10,103 nt of DNA from a virus. The position numbers and the translations under genes were made by a program. The stretch is taken from the UHGV virus genome UHGV-0293072. One strand, given 5' to 3'. Positions 2,136 to 10,103 of the stretch are shown here, one piece after another (the first letter of the stretch is position 1; each line of letters opens with the position of its first letter). The notes below the pieces were generated by a model. That model ran no database searches. It was not told the origin of the DNA and saw nothing but the letters and a program-made list of their open reading frames with translations.

Positions 2136-3197
2136 ATGCCGCAATCTCATTACCGCACGGATTGGCTATGTATTGCCACATCTGGACAGGCTGTGGACGG
2201 TCGCACCATTGAACCGCAATGGTTGATTGATGCGGCAGAAACCTACACCCGCAAAACCTACACCGCCATGATTTGGCCGCACCACCCGCAATACGATATC
2301 GGCGAGCGTGAATTTACCTGCAACCTGGGTGAAGTGGACGCGCTGAAAGTGGAAACGGAAGGTGACGTCACGAAGTTATATGCCCAGTTAATCCCGAATC
2401 AATTTTTAATTGATGCCAACCGTATGGGGCAAAAGTTATTTACGTCAGCAGAATTTGTCACTGATTTTGCAGGCAGTGGTCGTGAATATCTTTTCGGGCT
2501 GGCTGTGACGGATATTCCGGCAAGTCTGGGAACGGAAAAACTTAAATTTGTTTTAGCCGGTGAAGAAAAAGACGCCGAGCGCGGGAGTCTGGAAACATTC
2601 AGCTTAGGGAAATTACAGACAAGTAAACCAGATAAAAAAGATTCTTTCTGGTCGCGTTTATTTTCGGCCAGTAAAGATTTTACGCCAACGCCAGAGCCAA
2701 ACACTGATAAGCCCACCGAGGGCGACGGAGAAAAAATGGAAGAATTAAAAGCGCTCATTCAGCAAATGCTGGATCTGCTTAAAAGCGGGAAAGACGCCGC
2801 AGCGGGTGACGCTGACACGGTTGATACCCCGGAACAGGCCGCAGATGTGGTGGCAGATGTTGCCGCCCAGATCGCTGATGCTGCCGACGAGGTGGCCGAG
2901 CTGGCGCAGGACGTTATCGAAAACCCGGAAGACGAAGTCAAAGCGGAAGAATTCAGCGCCGCCAAAGCCAACCTGGCAAAAGTCATGAAGTCATTCAATG
3001 TGACGCCAGCGAAGCGCCCACGCGCCAGCCGTCGCCGTGACTTTTCCGCCCGTCGCCAGCCCGCTGACAACCCAATGGACAACCTCGCCACGCAACTGAC
3101 TACCGCCCTGACCAAGTTGTCAGCGCTGGAAAACGGCAATACGCGCCGCCCTGGCAGCGCACCAGGTGGAAACAAAGAACCGTTTGAGTTTGTTTAA
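2136..3197 (+). CDS. Capsid scaffolding protein, P2 GpO-like
   Basis: 353-aa ORF with Shine-Dalgarno AAAGG 6 nt upstream of ATG 2136. It sits immediately upstream of the major capsid gene and has a long acidic Ala/Asp/Glu-rich C-terminal half typical of scaffolds. P2 gene order P | O N M L. Confidence 0.8.
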   Translation: MPQSHYRTDWLCIATSGQAVDGRTIEPQWLIDAAETYTRKTYTAMIWPHHPQYDIGEREFTCNLGEVDALKVETEGDVTKLYAQLIPNQFLIDANRMGQKLFTSAEFVTDFAGSGREYLFGLAVTDIPASLGTEKLKFVLAGEEKDAERGSLETFSLGKLQTSKPDKKDSFWSRLFSASKDFTPTPEPNTDKPTEGDGEKMEELKALIQQMLDLLKSGKDAAAGDADTVDTPEQAADVVADVAAQIADAADEVAELAQDVIENPEDEVKAEEFSAAKANLAKVMKSFNVTPAKRPRASRRRDFSARRQPADNPMDNLATQLTTALTKLSALENGNTRRPGSAPGGNKEPFEFV

Positions 3198-3225: not shown

Positions 3226-4248
3226 ATGCAATTAACCCCAAAAGCAGAGCAGATGCTGCGTAAGTTTGCCGCAGGCCTGGCGAAAGCTAACGGCCAGGTG
3301 GACACGTCGCGCTACTTCTCGCTGACCAATCCGAAAGAAACCCAGCTGCGCAATGCCCTGTTGCAACAGTCTGAGTTCCTGCGCCTGCTGCCTAACGTAC
3401 TGGATGTGGACCAGATCACCGGCCAGGTGGTCAGCACCGGTAAACCGGGTATTTATACCGGGCGCAAAAAGGACGGTCGTTTCTCCCGCCCCCTGGGTGT
3501 TACCGGGAATGAATACAAGCTGGTAGAAACGGATTCCGGTTCGTATCTGCCTTACTCCCTGCTGGTTGTCTGGGCGAACGCGGGCAGTGAAGAGGAGTTC
3601 TTCCAGCGTATTCAGGCATTCAGCAACGAATCATTCGCGCTGGATATGCTGCGCGTGGCATTTAACGGTACAAGTGTTGCAGACGATACCGACCCGGAAA
3701 CCAACCCGAACGGCGAAGACGTCAACATCGGCTGGCACCAAATCGTTAAGGCCCGTTCGTCCGAACAGATTATTTCTGATGCCGTCACTATTGGCGCGTC
3801 GGGGGCTGACTTTATTGGTCTGGATGCGGCAGTCACTGACCTGGTGCACACCTGTATTTATGAGCCATTCCGCAATGACCCGCGCCTGGTTGTGCTGGCT
3901 TCCGCCGACCTTATCGGCAACGACGCCACCACGATGATGAATAAGATTGATCGCCCGACTGAGAAAGTCGCCGCGCAGCTTATTGGTCGCCAGATTGCTG
4001 GCCGTACCGTGTACACCCCGCCGTTTATGCCGGAGGGCCGCCTTATCGTCACCACGCTGGACAATCTGCATATCTACACCCAGCAGGGTACACGTAAGCG
4101 TAAAGCGGAATGGAACGACGACCGCAAGCGCTTCGAGAATAACTATCTGCGCATGGAAGGTTACGGCGTCGAGCATGACGAGCTGTATGCAGCATTCGAC
4201 AAAATCACCCTTGCGACCGGCGAAGTTGCACCGGGAGGGAGCGCATAA
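3226..4248 (+). CDS. Major capsid protein, P2 GpN family
   Basis: 340-aa ORF. Recalled P2 GpN-like blocks: VAFNGTS, NPNGEDVNIGWHQ, YEPFRNDPRLVVLASADLIG, and the C-terminal EHDELYAAFDKITLATGEV. Stop TAA at 4246-4248 lies 2 nt before the next ATG. Confidence 0.85.
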   Translation: MQLTPKAEQMLRKFAAGLAKANGQVDTSRYFSLTNPKETQLRNALLQQSEFLRLLPNVLDVDQITGQVVSTGKPGIYTGRKKDGRFSRPLGVTGNEYKLVETDSGSYLPYSLLVVWANAGSEEEFFQRIQAFSNESFALDMLRVAFNGTSVADDTDPETNPNGEDVNIGWHQIVKARSSEQIISDAVTIGASGADFIGLDAAVTDLVHTCIYEPFRNDPRLVVLASADLIGNDATTMMNKIDRPTEKVAAQLIGRQIAGRTVYTPPFMPEGRLIVTTLDNLHIYTQQGTRKRKAEWNDDRKRFENNYLRMEGYGVEHDELYAAFDKITLATGEVAPGGSA

Positions 4249-4250
4249 AA

Positions 4251-4952
4251 ATGGCCATGACCCCGTGTCAGCGACACCGAGCACGCGCGAAAGCCGCAAA
4301 GGCGCTGGATAAGTGCGAAGCACTGACGGCATCGCCGGTCAGCTTTCACATTCAAATGCTGGAGCTGGAAAAGGATGTTGAACGGCTTCGCAGTCTGACG
4401 CGTGCAGACCGTATGGACATGAAGCGCGACGTTCTTCTGCCGCGCTGGATGCCGACCGTTGAGGCATATCTTGCCGGTGATGCCCGCTTTGCCAATCCGG
4501 CCCTGGTTTACTGCGTGATCTGGCTGTTCGATACGGGGGAAATGGGCAAGGCGCTGGACTGGGCTGACGTGGCTATCAGTGAGAGCCAGGCCACGCCGGA
4601 GAACTTCAAAAGCAACCTGCCCGCCTTTGTGGCCGACACGGTGCTGGAGTGGGCGATCATGCAGGCGGAAGCCGGTCACAGCATCGAACCCTATTTCAGC
4701 CGCACGTTTGAAAACATCCGCGAAAAGTGGCGTTTGCACGAAGACATTAACGCGAAGTGGTTCAAATTCGCCGGTCTTTACCTGCTGCGCGACGAGAAGG
4801 GCCAGCCGCGTGCCACTGCCGTGGATGATGTGAATACGCTGGAACAGGCCGACGCCCTGCTGGCCCAGGCGGCGGCGTACAACAAAAACGCCGGAGTTAA
4901 GACCATGCGCGAAAAAATCCGCGCCCGGATTAACGGCCTGACCCAGCTTTAA
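4251..4952 (+). CDS. Terminase small (endonuclease) subunit, P2 GpM-like
   Basis: 233-aa ORF directly after the capsid gene, with a GGGAGGGA Shine-Dalgarno upstream. Position and size fit P2 GpM. Confidence 0.75.
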   Translation: MAMTPCQRHRARAKAAKALDKCEALTASPVSFHIQMLELEKDVERLRSLTRADRMDMKRDVLLPRWMPTVEAYLAGDARFANPALVYCVIWLFDTGEMGKALDWADVAISESQATPENFKSNLPAFVADTVLEWAIMQAEAGHSIEPYFSRTFENIREKWRLHEDINAKWFKFAGLYLLRDEKGQPRATAVDDVNTLEQADALLAQAAAYNKNAGVKTMREKIRARINGLTQL

Positions 4953-5054: not shown

Positions 5055-5528
5055 ATGAGTGGCCCTAGTTTCAGTATCAGCGGCAAGCCGGTGACGGTGA
5101 CGCCAACAGCGATCACCAACGGCGTGGCGTTCTGGCCCGATCTTGATCTGGCCGAGTTTCAGAAGGTGCGCACGTTGCCCGCTGACCTGCCGCCAGAAAC
5201 GGCAGGCGTGGCCCTGCTGGCCGCCATTGCGGAGGTAAACGACGCGCTGGCCGACGTGGTGACGTACTGGAACGCGAAAGCCTACGAACGGGCCGCAGAT
5301 GTACCGGGTGCAAAGATGGGCGACGAAACCCAATTAAAAGCCCAGTAAAAAAAAGCGGTCTACGCCCGCGCAAAGGCCGATTTACTGGGGGAATTCGCCA
5401 CCATCGGGCGACGTGAATCGCATCCGGGGCAGGAAAGCCAGGACACCCGCGCCAGCCTGCTGGCCGAGGCGGCCAATGTGATGCGAAACATGCTGCGACA
5501 ACCACGCGTTGGGGTGCATCTGATATGA
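5055..5528 (+). pseudogene. Head completion/stabilisation protein (P2 GpL-like) interrupted by an in-frame TAA at 5346-5348
   Basis: ATG 5055 with GAGG 7 nt upstream. The frame is open 5055-5345, hits TAA at 5346-5348, then the same frame stays open for 59 more sense codons (KKAVYARAKADLLGEFATIGRRESHPGQ...RVGVHLI) to TGA 5526-5528, which overlaps the ATG of the next gene. Combined length would be 157 aa, in the size range of GpL. Confidence 0.65.
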
Positions 5529-6001
5529 GCCAGCTTGAAAGCCTGACGGCGTTTATTACGGAAAATCTGCCGCCTGATGCCATGCAGATGTTTTCCAGTT
5601 CAATGGAGGATTGCGAGCTGGTACGCAACGCCAAAGCGCTGGGAAACAACCAGCGCCGGATCGGGGTGCTGACTTATACCGCCCGTTTGTCGTGGGATGA
5701 TTTCCCCTACCGCAAATATTCGCCGGGGCTGATTTATGCCCTGGTGCTGGCCTGGGTAGATGAGTTCGCCAACGAGCTGCGCGACGAGCTGAAGTTAGCC
5801 GATCCCACCGTGGACCCGGAGTTCGACGACGAAGGGTCATGCATTCTGGATGTGGTTGTCCCGCTGGTTGATCCGCTGGTCCTGCGTGAAGTGGAAAAAG
5901 GGCCGATCCCCTTCAAGGGTAAGAAATGGGACATCGTAAACCCCGAAATCTGGGAGGCGTCGCAACTGGAATTTATTGTCCAGCGTGGTGAGGCATCGTG
6001 A
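5525..6001 (+). CDS. Hypothetical phage structural protein in the neck/tail-completion position (possibly Mu gp36/DUF1320-like)
   Basis: 158-aa ORF. Its ATG 5525 overlaps the upstream TGA (ATGA) and its TGA 5999-6001 overlaps the downstream GTG start, indicating translational coupling. The family suggestion is a weak recollection only. Confidence 0.6.
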   Translation: MSQLESLTAFITENLPPDAMQMFSSSMEDCELVRNAKALGNNQRRIGVLTYTARLSWDDFPYRKYSPGLIYALVLAWVDEFANELRDELKLADPTVDPEFDDEGSCILDVVVPLVDPLVLREVEKGPIPFKGKKWDIVNPEIWEASQLEFIVQRGEAS

Positions 6002-6693
6002 TCCGTGGGGAGCTGAACCAACAACAGCTAAAGCAAATGCGGGAAACGCTGGCAAAAGCTGACCTTCCCCCGCGTAAGCGCCAGCGCCTTTTATGGCGTA
6101 TTGCAAAGCTGGGCATTGTCACAGCGGCAAAACGTCACCAGCGCCAGCAGGCGGCCCCGGACGGTACGCCGTGGGAGCCGCGCAAGCGTGGCAAAGGGAA
6201 AATGTTAAAAGGGCTGCCCAAACTGCTGGCTGTGCGTGAAATGCCGGAGATTCAGGGGGTAAGAATTTACCTCAAGGGCGGGAACTACCTGAACGGGACG
6301 AAGCCCATTGCGGCGGGTCTGGTCGGTGCGGTCCAGCAGGACGGTGCGCGGATCCAGATGAAAGCCAGTAACGCCCCGCGTAAGCCGCAGATTAACCAGC
6401 CCGCGTTACCGCGACAGGCCAAACGGCTGCGGGCGCTGGGCTACAAAACCCGCAAGGGTAAACGATGGGTTAAGCCGTCCAGCAGGCAAATCATGGAAAC
6501 CATGAGCATGGCCCAGGCGGGATTACTGATTCGAAAACTGAAAGGCACACCCTCAAAACGCACATGGACCATTGATATTCCTGGACGCGTTTTTCTGGGG
6601 GTGAGCAATGACGAATTTAACCAAATTATTGCGCGGCAAATGCAGGCAATCGGCTTCGGCTGGGACGTCACCGCGCAGCAAATCAGGGGGTAA
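5998..6693 (+). CDS. Phage virion morphogenesis / tail completion protein (P2 GpS, Mu gpK family)
   Basis: 231-aa basic protein with GTG start preceded by GGTGAGG. Motifs GTPWEPRKRGKG, RKGKRWVKP and IDIPGRVFLGV resemble the recalled W..P..R..G / GKRW / IPARPFL signature of the virion morphogenesis family. Confidence 0.65.
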   Translation: MIRGELNQQQLKQMRETLAKADLPPRKRQRLLWRIAKLGIVTAAKRHQRQQAAPDGTPWEPRKRGKGKMLKGLPKLLAVREMPEIQGVRIYLKGGNYLNGTKPIAAGLVGAVQQDGARIQMKASNAPRKPQINQPALPRQAKRLRALGYKTRKGKRWVKPSSRQIMETMSMAQAGLLIRKLKGTPSKRTWTIDIPGRVFLGVSNDEFNQIIARQMQAIGFGWDVTAQQIRG

Positions 6694-7146
6694 AAATGAC
6701 CTGGCCTACAGTCAACGTCAGTCAGAAAAACCGCTTCAACGGCACAACGAACGACGTCGAGCGCGTCATCCTCTTTGTGGGTTACGGCGACACTAACATC
6801 GGGAAAACCCAGTCGCTGAATACCGGCAGCGATCTGGATAAAGCCCTGGGCGACAAAGACAGCCCGTTAAAAAATATGGTGGCCGCTGCGGCCAATAACG
6901 CCGGACAGAACTGGTTTGCTTACGTGCATGTGCTGGCAGAGCCAGACAAGGGAGCCGAGGGCTACAAACCAGACGAAGACTGGATGAACGCAGTCAAACA
7001 GGCCCAGAGCGTGGCATCCGTGGAAGGGGTTGTCCTGGCATTTGATACCGCCGCCGCGGCCACCATTAACCGCGCAACGGAAATGCGCGTCACCTTACAG
7101 GCCAGTTTTGGGCGTTTTATCTGGTTTGCCCTTGCTGTGGGTGGGC

Positions 7147-7190
7147 CCGAAAAAGACGAAGTCATAATCGTGATACCACATCGGCACGCT
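7147..7190. repeat. Left junction repeats: A (7147-7161, ccgaaaaagacgaag) followed by B (7162-7190, tcataatcgtgataccacatcggcacgct)
   Basis: Exact reverse complements are present at 7454-7468 (A') and 7469-7497 (B'); verified base by base. Confidence 0.9.
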
Positions 7191-7468
7191 GTAGCGGCTT
7201 GCCTGCAAAGACTGCAACACAGCCAGATCAATTTCTGCGCCCGTCCCGTCCACCGGCAGGCCGTCGCGCCCCAGCGCGGTGACTGCACCGGTTGCGACGC
7301 GGGCGGGGCTGTCTGCCACCGTCACCGAACGGTTACACAGGCGACCAACCAGGACGCCGGGTTCGTTACCCCACAGGCGCGGGACCAGTTGCACCCCAGG
7401 CGAGGCAATACCGGCCTGGAGTTCAGCCAGGCGCGTCACATAGTCGCTCCATGCTTCGTCTTTTTCGG
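7162..7468 (-). other. Inverted internal block of the sheath-like gene (coding sense on minus strand)
   Basis: The minus strand reads SEKDE-AWSDYVTRLAELQAGIASPGVQLVPRLWGNEPGVLVGRLCNRSVTVADSPARVATGAVTALGRDGLPVDGTGAEIDLAVLQSLQASRY-SVPMWYHDYD, sharing EKDE with the plus-strand N-terminal fragment and SVPMWYHDYD with the plus-strand C-terminal fragment. Confidence 0.75.
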
Positions 7469-7497
7469 AGCGTGCCGATGTGGTATCACGATTATGA
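7454..7497. repeat. Right junction repeats: A' (7454-7468, cttcgtctttttcgg) followed by B' (7469-7497, agcgtgccgatgtggtatcacgattatga)
   Basis: Reverse complements of A and B at the left junction. The order on the right is A'-B', not B'-A' as a simple 44-bp inverted repeat would give. Confidence 0.9.
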
Positions 7498-7885
7498 CGG
7501 CATCTACTGGGCTGACGGTCGCACCCTGGACGTTGAAGGCGGTGATTATCAGGTGATTGAAAACGTGCGCGTGGTTGATAAAGCCTCCCGCCGCGTCCGT
7601 CTGCGTGCAATCCCTAAAATTGCCGATCGTTCGCTGAACAGTACACCGGGCAGCATTGCCGCGCATGAAACCTATTTCGGCAAGCCGCTGCGTGAAATGG
7701 CGATTTCAACCCAGATCAATGGTGTCGAATTTCCGGGCGAAGTGAAGCCACCAAAAGACGGCGATATCACCATCACCTGGACCAGTAGCGAAGCGGTACA
7801 GATTTACCTTGTGGTTCGACCGTATGAGAGCGCGAAAGAAATCGGCGTCAGCATCGAACTGGACACCTCACTGGAGAGCTAACCA

Positions 7886-8341
7886 ATGACTGAACGTATC
7901 AGCGGTGGATCATTCGATGTGAACTACGACGCCATCATGATTCACGTCGAAAACGCCACCGTCACCATTACGGACAACAGCGCGGTTGCGCAGTCGCGTG
8001 GCATCCCGAACGGCCACACGAAAGGGTCAGTTTCGGCGGATGTGGAAGTCGAAGTCGATTCCCAGAATTTTAAAAAGTTTACGGCTGTGGCCCGCGCCGC
8101 AGGCTCATGGCGGGCCATTCCGGCAAAGGACTTTTTGTTCTATGCCAATGCCGGGGACGACGAAGAAAAAATCGAAGTGTTTGGCTGTGTTCCGATGTTG
8201 TCCGACATCGTCAACATCAACCCTAACGAGGCCAGTAAAACCACGAAAAAAATTAAATTCATGGTGACAAGCCCGGATTTTGTCGCGATTGACGGCGTGC
8301 CGTACCTGTCTGCCCGTGACACTCGCGATCTGAAAGGCTGA
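7886..8341 (+). CDS. Tail tube-like protein
   Basis: 151-aa ORF with GGAGAG Shine-Dalgarno, immediately after the sheath-like gene. Size and position are typical of a contractile-tail tube protein. Assignment is by context. Confidence 0.6.
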   Translation: MTERISGGSFDVNYDAIMIHVENATVTITDNSAVAQSRGIPNGHTKGSVSADVEVEVDSQNFKKFTAVARAAGSWRAIPAKDFLFYANAGDDEEKIEVFGCVPMLSDIVNINPNEASKTTKKIKFMVTSPDFVAIDGVPYLSARDTRDLKG

Positions 8342-8345
8342 CACG

Positions 8346-8657
8346 ATGATGAATGGAGAGGCATCACTGCTGGAAAAACTGTTGCTTATCGGGGCCGTGA
8401 TCGGACTGGGGCAACTGATGGCAAGCAATGAGCAAATCACAGCCCGTTTGCTGATCGGGCGGATGATTCTGGGATCGGCGGTCGCACCACTGGCCGCAAT
8501 CCCGCTGCTGAAATTTCCTGAAATGCCGGAACTGGTCGTCATTGGTCTGGCCTGCGCCCTGGGCATTCTGGGGAGCGCGTTTATTGAGGCAGGGCTAAAG
8601 CGCTGCCTGGATATGTATATCAAGCGATGGGGGAGCAAGCGCAATGAAACTGAGTGA
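8346..8657 (+). CDS. Holin (three predicted transmembrane segments, dual ATG-ATG start)
   Basis: 103 aa with three hydrophobic stretches (LLLIGAVIGLGQLMA, LLIGRMILGSAVAPLAAIPLL, LVVIGLACALGILGSAFI) and a charged C-terminus. It directly precedes and overlaps the endolysin gene. Confidence 0.7.
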   Translation: MMNGEASLLEKLLLIGAVIGLGQLMASNEQITARLLIGRMILGSAVAPLAAIPLLKFPEMPELVVIGLACALGILGSAFIEAGLKRCLDMYIKRWGSKRNETE

Positions 8658-8982
8658 AAAACAGCAACTTTTCACGGTGATGATCGCCAACCTGATTCAT
8701 TTTGCCGAAGACAAGGGCTATCGCCTGACGTTTGGCGAAGCGTACCGCACACCAGAGCAGGCCGCGATCAACGCAAAAAAAGGGAGTGGCATTGCTAACA
8801 GCCTGCATACCCAGCGCCTGGCCGTGGACTTTAACCTGTTTGTTAACGGCGAATACCAGACCGACAGCGCCGCTTATCGCCCGCTGGGTGAATACTGGGA
8901 ATCCATCGGTGGATCATGGGGTGGCCGTTTCAGTAAGCCGGACGGCAACCATTTCAGTCTTGAGCATAACGGGGTGAGCTGA
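8644..8982 (+). CDS. Endolysin, peptidase M15 family (zinc-dependent cell-wall peptidase)
   Basis: 112 aa with an H-x6-D motif (SLHTQRLAVD) and a second His (GNHFSLEH), consistent with M15 zinc ligands. GGGGGAG Shine-Dalgarno upstream; start overlaps the holin 3' end. Confidence 0.75.
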   Translation: MKLSEKQQLFTVMIANLIHFAEDKGYRLTFGEAYRTPEQAAINAKKGSGIANSLHTQRLAVDFNLFVNGEYQTDSAAYRPLGEYWESIGGSWGGRFSKPDGNHFSLEHNGVS

Positions 8983-9365
8983 TGCGAAATGTGCTGGGTC
9001 TTTTGTTGATTCTGGCCGCTGCTATGTGGGCGGGCTGGCAGGCGCATGACTGGCACGACGCAAAGCTGAAACTCGCTGCCAGCGAAGCGGCAGAACAAAC
9101 GCGCCAGATTGTCGTTGAGGTGACGCGGCAGTCTGGTGAAGCGCTGGAAGCAAAACTCGCGGGGCTTAAAGCCAATGAAATTCATACGGAACGGGTTATC
9201 CGCACGGAAACCATTAAGCCGGTTTTTAGCAACGTTTGTGCTTCTGATGATTACGTCCGGCTGTTCAACGAAAGTGCAGATCAAGCCGAGCGAGAATTAT
9301 CAGGAAAACCAGATGACACTTTGCCCGGTAAGACCACCACGTCTGGCCGGACCGACAGGAAATGA
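8982..9365 (+). CDS. i-spanin (Rz-like)
   Basis: 127 aa with an N-terminal transmembrane anchor (LGLLLILAAAMWAGW) followed by a charged, helical periplasmic domain. ATG overlaps the endolysin stop (TGATG). Contains an embedded +1-frame lipoprotein ORF. Confidence 0.7.
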   Translation: MRNVLGLLLILAAAMWAGWQAHDWHDAKLKLAASEAAEQTRQIVVEVTRQSGEALEAKLAGLKANEIHTERVIRTETIKPVFSNVCASDDYVRLFNESADQAERELSGKPDDTLPGKTTTSGRTDRK

Positions 9366-9471
9366 TTTTGACGCGGCGCTGACAGCCTACCGGCAGATGT
9401 ATACCGACTGCGCCGCCCGACATAACGCCCTAGTGGGCATCATTCGACAACGTAAGGAATTAACACAATGA
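9175..9471 (+). CDS. o-spanin (Rz1-like outer-membrane lipoprotein), embedded in and extending beyond the i-spanin gene
   Basis: +1-frame ORF inside Rz. Signal peptide with lipobox-like TSGC (Cys at 9262-9264), Pro-rich mature part with additional Cys. Start is ambiguous: ATG 9175, or GTG 9136 with GAGGTGA upstream. Its stop TGA 9469-9471 overlaps the next ATG. Confidence 0.6.
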   Translation: MKFIRNGLSARKPLSRFLATFVLLMITSGCSTKVQIKPSENYQENQMTLCPVRPPRLAGPTGNDFDAALTAYRQMYTDCAARHNALVGIIRQRKELTQ

Positions 9472-9737
9472 GTAAACCGAACAAAATCACCATGACCGTG
9501 GCGGGTGTCAATCTGAGCTTTGAGCCGAATAAAACCGCGTTCAATAACCTGATTAACGAAATGACCATGACCAATAAGATTGCGCCAATGGCGACGTATC
9601 TGGGGCGTATCGTTGATGCCGACTGTAAAGAGGCACTTAGCAAGCTGATGGAAGATTATCCGGGTTGCGAAATGCAGATCGTTGAAAAGGTTAACGAGAT
9701 TTACTCCCCCAAACTTGAGATCGAAGTAAAAAACTGA
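9468..9737 (+). CDS. Putative tail assembly chaperone (G-like) with a 3'-terminal -1 slippery site
   Basis: 89-aa ORF with AAGGA Shine-Dalgarno. It ends ...GTA AAA AAC TGA with heptamer A_AAA_AAC in the zero frame, and the -1 frame is open from there to the window end. Position ahead of the presumed tape-measure region fits the conserved chaperone frameshift arrangement. Confidence 0.5.
   Translation: MSKPNKITMTVAGVNLSFEPNKTAFNNLINEMTMTNKIAPMATYLGRIVDADCKEALSKLMEDYPGCEMQIVEKVNEIYSPKLEIEVKN
9728..9734 (+). promoter_or_regulatory. Candidate -1 programmed ribosomal frameshift heptamer A_AAA_AAC
   Basis: Canonical X_XXY_YYZ slippery pattern in the correct phase, 1 nt before the zero-frame stop. 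No downstream pseudoknot or stem-loop was evaluated. Confidence 0.45.
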
Positions 9738-10103
9738 CGGCGCGGGTAGCGGCCATTCGCACGAATGCCCTGGAGCAATACCTTGCCTTGAGCGCGTCCT
9801 CTGCTACGCCTTTGGAACCCACTTCTGCAAGTGCGGCGTTCATCTCATACGCCGGACCCACCACGCCCGCGATGGACTGCGCCACGCCCCAGACAGCCGC
9901 CGCACCGATCCCGATTTTTGTAAAAGACGCCTGCGATTTTTCAGCAAAGCCGGACAACGAAGATGCGATGAAAGGTGCAATGGCGGGCCTGTCCGATATG
10001 GACCTGCCCCGCGTCACCATCGCGGCCAATACCCTGGCGGCAGGCGTCAAGGCCAGCGGCGAAGAGGCAGGCGAATACATCGGTGCGATGGCGTCACGTT
10101 TCA
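9728..10103 (+). CDS. -1 frame extension of the chaperone (GT-like fusion) and/or 5' part of the next tail gene; truncated by the window end
   Basis: The -1 frame has no stop from 9719 to 10103 (over 125 codons). High-quality codon usage from about 9968 (MKGAMAGLSDMDLPRVTIAANTLAAGVKASGEEAGEYIGAMASRF). No good Shine-Dalgarno before the in-frame ATGs at 9872 or 9968, favouring access by frameshifting. Confidence 0.4.

Follow-up and report, generated by a model that had tools for sequence, protein, structure and literature searches.

A predicted holin, M15 endolysin and spanin cassette between the tail tube and chaperone genes of an HP1-like member of the Peduoviridae

Introduction

Lysis clusters embedded in the tail region of phage genomes have been described previously (PMC7312051, PMC10612066, PMC3986222). 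In Haemophilus phage HP1, hol and lys are situated between ORF24, the tube gene, and ORF25, belong to a late transcript and were lytic in experiments (PMC7312051). The HP1 record has hol, lys and orf25 between orf24 and orf26, where orf24 is the founding member of the Pfam family to which the tube protein of the present locus belongs, and orf26 is a chaperone homologue carrying the same AAAAAAC slippery site. The lysis cluster of Vibrio phages K139 and PV94 occupies the same slot after the tube gene, preceded there by a DksA-type zinc-finger gene, and the K139 record shows an o-spanin ORF that continues in frame into the chaperone.

The P2 record, in contrast, gives the orders L-X-Y-K-lysA-lysB-lysC-R-S and FI-FII-E-E'-T. 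There the lysis genes Y-K-lysA-lysB-lysC lie between X, which follows the head completion gene L, and the tail completion genes R and S, whereas sheath, tube, E, E' and T are contiguous. P2 lysis genes are nevertheless part of a late structural operon, the O operon, which they share with head and tail genes.

Here, we analyzed a stretch of 10,103 nucleotides of the virus genome UHGV-0293072 (hereafter the window). An original prediction made from its letters had placed lysis genes between a tube-like gene and a putative tail assembly chaperone, set this against the P2 order, as the P2 record bears out, and proposed a mosaic module order with co-transcription of lysis and tail genes. The window is 94% identical at the nucleotide level to Salmonella phage SI7 (Irrigatiovirus, Peduoviridae; NC_049460). 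Across SI7, its SW3/SW5 relatives and prophages in 18 complete E. coli genomes (together, the SI7 group), nucleotide identity was 91 to 98% and amino acid identity 87 to 99%.

Results

The features on which the argument depends are as follows.

6696-7882, + strand: tail sheath (DUF2586/phrog_907; Pfam and PHROG matches)
7886-8341, + strand: tail tube protein (Pfam Phage_HP1_Orf24, formerly DUF2597, E 2e-51; phrog_1182)
8346-8657, + strand: holin (Pfam Phage_holin_3_2, 76 bits against a cutoff of 25; phrog_175 holin)
8644-8982, + strand: M15 endolysin, 112 aa (Peptidase_M15_4, 40 bits against a cutoff of 25; phrog_1768 endolysin)
8982-9365, + strand: Rz-like i-spanin, membrane-anchored at its N-terminus (phrog_1152 "Rz-like spanin", E 8e-38)
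9175-9471, + strand: o-spanin, an Rz1/LysC-like lipoprotein (ORF 9136-9471, probable ATG at 9175; phrog_2425, E 2e-28; phrog_456 "Rz-like spanin", E 2e-5)
9468-9737, + strand: tail assembly chaperone, short product (Pfam Phage_TAC_10, E 4e-31; PHROG 1214)
9728-9734, + strand: slippery heptamer A_AAA_AAC, 3 nt short of the chaperone stop, where a programmed -1 frameshift is predicted
9734-9787, + strand: start of the chaperone -1 frame extension (DUF6890 in relatives), cut off by a rearrangement at about 9787
9787-10103: rearranged 5' part of the tape measure gene, 9787-9963 inverted and 9963-10103 forward (blastn against SI7 and the relative L092)

The ORFs lie at the coordinates first given. 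Pfam and PHROG searches agreed with the gene identities first proposed, and confirmed that 8346-9471 is predicted to encode four lysis functions, namely, a holin, an M15 endolysin, an i-spanin and an o-spanin. The holin is of the P2 gpY type (39% identity to P2 gpY, E 6e-18), and three hydrophobic segments followed by a charged C-terminus can be read from its translation. The endolysin is small and of the cytoplasmic type, with neither a signal nor a SAR segment, and its counterparts in relatives are labelled M15 family metallopeptidase or endolysin in database annotation. Its translation contains H55-x6-D62 and D100-x-x-H103, which, by analogy with M15 enzymes, we take to be the zinc ligands and catalytic residues. 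The i-spanin has a counterpart annotated as Rz-like spanin in SI7.

The o-spanin gene begins within Rz in the +1 frame and runs 106 nt past the Rz end, an extension that by definition makes the architecture overlapped (PMC6139136). Its Pfam LysC match is weak and below the cutoff (E 0.0018). Relatives keep its lipobox, ITSG|C in the window, as TSGC, LSGC, MSGC or LSAC, together with the CAARHN motif. The entire frame has stayed open in both SI7 and an E. coli prophage, although the gene is unannotated in the SI7-group records. All five lysis reading frames and the chaperone stay open in relatives at 87 to 96% amino acid identity, and the ORF pattern is therefore not a chance one. Antisense and alternative-frame ORFs within 8105-10080 had no Pfam match and were treated as spurious. 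An NCBIfam search of six proteins returned no useful match for any, and a PDB sequence search with the endolysin gave nothing meaningful.

Upstream of the cassette, the product of 7886-8341 has the tube-protein fold of contractile tails. It showed no sequence homology to P2 FII (hhalign probability 0.2%), and a PDB sequence search with the protein gave no match; the product is thus a tube protein by fold and position, without detectable FII homology. The head module is P2-type and collinear with that of SI7 and L092, as judged from the ORF map and the Pfam families on their genes, with the terminase large subunit leftward and the GPO scaffold, P2-family capsid, small terminase and gpL head completion genes rightward. 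Pfam families then follow in the order P2_Phage_GpR, Phage_tail_S, DUF2586 and Phage_HP1_Orf24, with gaps of 2 to 4 nt or less.

Downstream of the cassette, we regard 9468-9737 as a genuine chaperone gene with a predicted -1 frameshift product, a functional analogue of P2 gpE and lambda gpG. In every relative examined, the tape measure gene follows it immediately. A slippery motif (AAAAAAC, AAAAAAG or AAAAAAA) is found at the same position in 10 of 10 phages examined, and in each of these the -1 extension is 60 to 63 aa long and ends at the tape measure start. In the window the extension reads LTARVAAIRTNALEQYLAL and then departs from SI7. An RNA fold 3' of the slippery site that might stimulate frameshifting was no more stable than those of shuffled sequences (z 0.05). 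Comparison of the chaperone family profile with P2 gpE gave no similarity, and a PDB sequence search with the chaperone gave nothing meaningful; matches of designed PPR proteins to the profile were dismissed as repeat artefacts.

The junctions are as tight as had been claimed. The tube stop TGA (8339-8341) is separated from the holin ATG at 8346 by 4 nt, the holin and endolysin genes overlap by 14 nt, the endolysin stop and the Rz start share TGATG, and ATGA at 9468-9471 joins the Rz1 stop to the chaperone start. Both the 4-nt gap and the ATGA overlap recur in the SI7 group. In the wider locus survey, the gap between the tube and the first slot gene was mostly 3 to 21 nt, and the ATGA overlap of the last slot gene with the chaperone was present in 56 of 86 loci, kept though the cassettes are non-homologous. 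These short gaps and stop/start overlaps are consistent with translational coupling at both edges of the cassette, which we infer from the spacing. No + strand terminator-like sites were found within the window downstream of 6767. A sigma-70 promoter scan, for which 5.8 chance hits were expected, gave a single weak site (9460-9487), which was disregarded, the count being below that expectation. Given the spacing and the lack of gaps and of + strand terminator-like sites, co-transcription of the lysis and tail genes is plausible.

The window shares with the SI7 group the order sheath, tube, holin, M15 endolysin, Rz, chaperone, DUF6890 extension and tape measure. Lysis genes were found between the tube and chaperone genes in all ten annotated phages and prophages inspected (SI7, HP1, K139, phiO18P, phi3, ESSI-2, C5a, SMHB1, YenM_324 and an E. 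coli prophage). Furthermore, 91 loci were surveyed, 88 of which carry both the tube family and the chaperone, and in 87 of these 88 the two genes are 1.1 to 2.7 kb apart. The hosts with lysis genes in this slot include Haemophilus, Vibrio, Aeromonas, Pseudomonas, Pasteurella, Yersinia, Cronobacter, Salmonella and E. coli. Considering the 87 loci and the ten annotated phages across these hosts, the lysis slot is taken to be ancestral to the HP1-like lineage. The slot is not obligatory, since in one relative (L076) the tube and chaperone genes are adjacent, 278 nt apart, without a cassette; loss explains this state more simply.

What fills the slot is variable, and in the surveyed loci the endolysins fall into at least six types and the holins into four. 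In 29 loci holin_3_2 is paired with M15_4. Other cassettes combine a lambda-S holin and either CHAP or an unassigned lysin, the pinholin of HP1 and a SAR lysozyme, or GTA_holin_3TM and one of DUF5675, M15_3 and a pesticin-like muramidase.

The HP1 lysis proteins are a pinholin (Phage_holin_2_3) and a SAR lysozyme (Phage_lysozyme), where the window has a P2-Y-type holin with three transmembrane domains and a soluble M15 peptidase, and the gap after the tube gene is 86 nt in HP1 against 4 nt in the window. Holin and lysozyme families also differ from the window in K139 and PV94. P2 has a homologous holin and overlapped lysB/lysC spanins, as in the window, whose o-spanin is weakly similar to P2 LysC; its gene K, present alongside lysA, is a different endolysin gene, whereas the window lysin is an M15 peptidase. 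Yersinia phage vB_YenM_324 (NC_070917) and Cronobacter phage ESSI-2 carry in the same slot the type-A cassette of holin_3_2, M15 endolysin, Rz and overlapped o-spanin, and the YenM_324 annotation reads tail protein, holin, endolysin, Rz-like spanin, O-spanin, tail assembly chaperone and tape measure. Their endolysins are 78 to 83% identical to that of the window, whereas the tube, holin, spanins and chaperone show 32 to 53% identity; these are distant lineages in which only the endolysin is closely shared.

The window itself is rearranged. It carries three inverted segments (1-141, 7161-7468 and 9787-9963) with flanking deletions or duplications, and gpL contains a TAC>TAA nonsense codon. A frameshift in gpL was considered and rejected, the change being a C>A nonsense substitution. 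The portal, gpL (head completion), sheath and tape measure genes are broken, while sheath, gpL and tape measure are intact in the SI7 group. The inverted segment 7161-7468, with inverted-repeat arms at 7154-7190 and 7469-7505, breaks the sheath gene and splits its matches into an N-terminal part (ORF 6696-7556) and a C-terminal part (ORF 7292-7882); L092 and SI7 have a collinear, unbroken sheath gene of 380 aa. Collinearity with relatives stops at 9787, and the region of the tape measure start codon is missing from the window. An exact protein match led to an intact 30.4-kb contig, 99.9% identical to the window, and neither this contig nor any other relative has the inversions or the gpL nonsense codon. 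Neither an inversion junction nor the holin start had an exact match when representative genomes were scanned. An identical loss of 205 nt occurs at two junctions and substitutions are clustered near the junctions; these features look more like an artefact, though the rearrangements may be either artefactual or biological.

Discussion

The present study indicates that the window very probably carries, presumably on one late transcript, a complete and canonical four-gene cassette of the Gram-negative type in a lysis slot that HP1-like Peduoviridae keep, with modular contents and followed by a chaperone gene with a frameshift site. By analogy with the holin, peptidase and spanin families concerned, the P2-Y-type holin would build up in the inner membrane and trigger holes, through which the cytoplasmic M15 zinc peptidase would get to the peptidoglycan and cleave peptide stems, and the Rz/Rz1 pair, an inner-membrane anchor and an outer-membrane lipoprotein, would then remove the outer membrane. 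One long rightward late transcript would comprise the head, neck, sheath, tube, lysis, chaperone and tape-measure genes. Since the holin would set the timing of lysis, co-expression with tail genes should be harmless; moreover, co-transcription with structural genes carries no new implication, as P2 itself does so in its O operon. The cassette is presumably lytic; the cassette with experimental support in the same slot is the non-homologous one of HP1.

The placement of the cassette could be read as a recent mosaic insertion peculiar to this phage, splitting a tube-chaperone pair that is contiguous in P2 as part of FI-FII-E-E'-T. Such a reading would accommodate the L076 locus, whose tube and chaperone are only 278 nt apart, and it could draw on the M15 endolysin, which in distant loci is 73 to 83% identical where its neighbours are 32 to 56% identical and thereby suggests exchange. 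The use of the same slot in 87 of 88 loci and in all ten annotated phages contradicts it, and with the L076 state read as loss, we consider a recent insertion very improbable. The proposal of a mosaic module order therefore stands in part. The order does differ from that of P2 and the contents of the slot have been exchanged, but the order is standard in the lineage; the mosaicism is real, and on present comparisons it lies in which cassette fills the slot, not in the order of modules. Still less credible, to the point of being practically negligible, is that 9468-9737 is a lysis accessory gene with the true chaperone elsewhere. PHROG 1214 has no functional label, similarity to P2 gpE is absent and the gene is presumably translationally linked to Rz1, all of which could accommodate that assignment. 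On the other hand, the Phage_TAC_10 match is strong (E 4e-31), the slippery heptamer and the extension up to the tape measure start are conserved, and no other small ORF precedes the tape measure gene in relatives; the chaperone assignment of the original prediction is thus upheld.

Two further alternatives touch on regulation and on the state of this copy. The cassette could have its own late promoter in the 3' end of the tube gene and be regulated apart from the upstream tail genes. An Ogr/Delta protein is encoded by these phages, and the window has a dyad of the P2 Ogr type, TGT-N12-ACA, at 8199-8216, with 130 nt separating it from the holin ATG, and TTAAAT, a -10-like hexamer, at 8253-8258; furthermore, the half-sites of the dyad are kept in 14 close relatives while the intervening bases change. 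However, the window holds four such dyads against 1.75 expected, a number that 18 of 200 shuffles reach. Conserved Leu-Ser and Asn-Ile codons constrain the half-sites in part, and the relatives are non-independent. The dyad is lost in more distant type-A loci. An exact copy of it is also absent from 1958-2136, the known late promoter region of the window, so that it may not be the activator site of the lineage. When traced in relatives, the dyad was unconvincing as an activator site; a separate promoter, which would in any case leave read-through possible, is accordingly quite unlikely. We would rate only slightly higher, though still unlikely, the broader idea that the ATGA link between o-spanin and chaperone has a function beyond packing, with o-spanin translation setting the synthesis of the (frameshifted) chaperone, or else that an Ogr-type promoter at the 8199-8216 dyad makes the tube-distal tail and lysis genes a separately timed late unit. 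A more serious, if tentative, possibility is that the cassette here belongs to a defective or mis-assembled element in which the tail-lysis linkage is without function. The three inversions and the gpL nonsense codon, seen in none of the relatives, point that way; the cassette and chaperone, on the other hand, are 100% identical to those of the intact contig. If the sequence is correct, the broken portal, gpL, sheath and tape measure genes would preclude virions and leave a defective prophage as the only setting in which the cassette could still act. The identity with the intact contig means that the gene-order finding holds for the phage type whatever befell this copy, whose rearrangements need checking before it is used.

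Lysis genes inside the tail module are thus the normal, long-known layout of the HP1-like branch of the Peduoviridae, and there is no cause to flag the arrangement as unusual. Its importance beyond correct annotation is slight. Correct annotation itself has something to gain, as the o-spanin gene (9175-9471) is missing from the annotations of SI7 and the RefSeq prophages. For this branch, the slot between the tube and chaperone genes represents a conserved exchange point for unrelated lysis cassettes.

Gene content of the late region

The window corresponds to the late region of a temperate, P2-like phage. Among named phages it is closest to Salmonella phage SI7 (Irrigatiovirus, Peduoviridae; ~94% nucleotide identity), and the same prophage type is present in 18 complete E. 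coli genomes.

Genes of the late region (window coordinates)
147-1958, leftward: terminase large subunit
2136-3197: GPO scaffold
3226-4248: capsid, P2-family
4251-4952: small terminase
5055-5527: gpL head completion
5525-6001: gpR-like gene
5998-6693: gpS-like gene
6696-7882: sheath, DUF2586
7886-8341: tube, Phage_HP1_Orf24
8346-9471: flagged lysis region, comprising the next four genes
8346-8657: holin; Pfam Phage_holin_3_2, well over cutoff; phrog_175
8644-8982: endolysin; Peptidase_M15_4, over cutoff
8982-9365: Rz; match to phrog_1152 'Rz-like spanin'
+1 frame ORF ending at 9471: o-spanin (Rz1/LysC-like lipoprotein); phrog_2425/456, and Pfam LysC weakly
9468-9737: ORF of the Phage_TAC_10 family
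3' of the 9468-9737 ORF: tape measure gene, in fragments

The lysis elements named by the original prediction were all recovered by Pfam and phrog matches exactly where it had placed them, and its gene calls are correct. The reading frames of this region are intact in SI7 and in the E. coli prophage, with 87-96% amino-acid identity, and the opposite-strand ORFs in the region gave no family match. The likeliest start codon of the o-spanin gene is the ATG at 9175; translation from it yields a signal sequence with the lipobox ITSG|C at its end, and this lipobox and a CAARHN motif are kept in relatives. Frame, lipobox, and cysteines are conserved between the window gene (9175-9471) and its counterparts in two comparison loci (L001 9849-10145; L002 10436-10732). 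The gene was left out of the SI7 and RefSeq E. coli prophage annotations. The overlapped spanin architecture has been defined previously, and such o-spanins are frequently unannotated (PMC6139136).

The gpR-like gene (5525-6001) shows 98% nucleotide identity to the E. coli prophage versus 91% to SI7, while the genes beside it are roughly equally similar to both. This pattern may be a small sign of recombination between close relatives.

Placement of the lysis genes

The O operon of P2 runs L-X-Y-K-lysA-lysB-lysC-R-S, and its F operon FI-FII-E-E'-T. The contrast with P2 drawn previously therefore holds, as the P2 record puts the lysis genes elsewhere. Despite the different position of the cassette within the late region, the window holin is clearly homologous to P2 gpY (6716-6997 in the P2 locus; 39% identity), whereas the endolysin has no relation to P2 gpK.

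The tube family Phage_HP1_Orf24 is carried by 76 phage records, including HP1, HP2, K139, Kappa, F108, phiO18P, phi3, ESSI-2, C5a, SMHB1, and YenM_324. All 10 annotated records inspected place lysis genes after the tube and ahead of the chaperone/tape measure. The annotation of Yersinia phage vB_YenM_324, for example, reads tail protein, holin, endolysin, Rz-like spanin, O-spanin, tail assembly chaperone, tape measure. We enlarged the survey by 80 loci from IMG/VR, and tube and chaperone HMM hits were both present in 88 loci. The two genes are separated by 1.1-2.7 kb in 87 of these; in the sole exception, L076 5001-6034 (IMGVR_UViG_3300048856_000141), the chaperone follows the tube after 278 nt with no cassette between. 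Thus, the placement is unusual relative to P2, but not relative to the tube-family lineage. In HP1, hol and lys have been located between ORF24 (tube) and ORF25, as part of a late transcript, and pinholin/SAR-endolysin lysis has been demonstrated experimentally (PMC7312051). Lysis genes between tube and chaperone are an already known arrangement and the rule in HP1-like Peduoviridae.

The chaperone and its frameshift site

This reading of the gene order depends on the 9468-9737 ORF being a genuine chaperone and not an unrelated lysis accessory gene. It is a chaperone, since it matches Pfam Phage_TAC_10 (E 4e-31) and carries a conserved frameshift site, A_AAA_AAC, at its end, three bases upstream of the stop. 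Every one of the 10 phages compared, ranging from HP1 to Pseudoalteromonas C5a, has the same slippery site. In these, the -1 frame extension of 60-63 aa carries a conserved LRR.YLPHE..D motif and reaches precisely to where the tape measure gene begins. Downstream of A_AAA_AAC, a search for additional RNA structure found none.

Junctions and transcription

The junctions are as originally read: the tube stop and holin ATG are 4 nt apart, and the Rz1 stop overlaps the next gene start through ATGA. Across loci, the last gene of the slot (the tube-chaperone interval) overlaps the chaperone start via ATGA in 56 of 86 and lies a few bases away in most of the rest, and the gap from tube to first slot gene is mostly 3-21 nt. 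Tight packing is therefore a lineage feature.

Downstream of 6767, no terminator-like sites were found on the + strand of the window, and there was only a single, weak promoter-like match, a number below chance expectation. Both observations favor, without proving, the proposed co-transcription of lysis and tail genes by read-through. A separate promoter within the tube gene is improbable. The candidate is a P2 Ogr-type dyad, TGTCCGACATCGTCAACA (TGT-N12-ACA), at 8199-8216, 130 nt before the holin ATG, with a TTAAAT hexamer ~48 nt downstream (8253-8258). Its half-sites are conserved in 14 close relatives though the bases between vary, but coding constraints partly explain this conservation, and the dyad is lost in distant relatives. 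Furthermore, the number of such motifs across the window does not reach significance, and the window's known late promoter region holds no exact copy.

Rearrangements in this copy

An exact-protein look-up provided a reference, the 30.4-kb contig logan:SRR11412904_3608, with all genes intact and piecewise 99.9-100% identical to the window. Compared with it, 1-141 is an inverted portal gene piece with 205 nt missing, and 9787-9963 is an inverted tape measure gene piece. Before the latter, 205 nt (chaperone extension end and tape measure start) are absent, as are 73 nt after it; substitutions cluster at 9769-9805, near the 9787 junction. The chaperone -1 frame has no stop within this inverted piece and continues into that of the tape measure. 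The sheath gene carries 7161-7468 in the orientation opposite to that of every relative, and copies of the segment's ends form inverted repeats (7147-7161/7454-7468 and 7154-7190/7469-7505); DUF2586 is thereby split into two out-of-frame ORFs. Two C>A differences from the contig, SI7, and the E. coli prophage lie in gpL (5338 and within 5346-5348), the second a Tyr TAC>TAA nonsense change that cuts the 157-codon gene short at codon 98. Across 17 relatives, none of the changes listed here is seen. They may be real lesions in a decaying prophage or may be artefacts; the 205-nt loss repeated at two sites looks artefactual. The cassette and chaperone are unaffected (8346-9737, 100% identical to the contig).

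Variable cargo of the slot

Cassettes were typed by clustering slot ORFs and scanning representatives.

Cassette types
holin_3_2, M15_4, Rz/Rz1 (window's type): 29 loci
lambda-S-type holin with CHAP enzyme or unassigned lysin, and spanins
HP1 pinholin and SAR lysozyme
Vibrio-type sets: DksA zinc-finger gene; DUF5675, M15_3, or pesticin-like enzyme; GTA_holin_3TM holin

In K139 (L004 6194-6772, AF125163 orf30), the annotated 192-aa o-spanin, with lipobox LLSGC, continues in frame into the chaperone without an intervening stop, whereas a stop and frame change separate the two in the relatives L042 and L071. This continuity reflects a real fusion or else a sequencing/annotation issue of the K139 record.

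Within the window's type (window vs L007, L010, and L048-L090), endolysin identity is 73-83% even in loci where that of tube, holin, spanins, and chaperone drops to 32-56%. In Cronobacter phage ESSI-2, megablast likewise picks up no stretch but the M15 endolysin (79% nt). The excess in identity suggests either gene-level exchange or unusually strong constraint on the endolysin alone. Methyltransferase genes are occasionally inserted in the slot. It is the cassette content of the slot that differs among loci.
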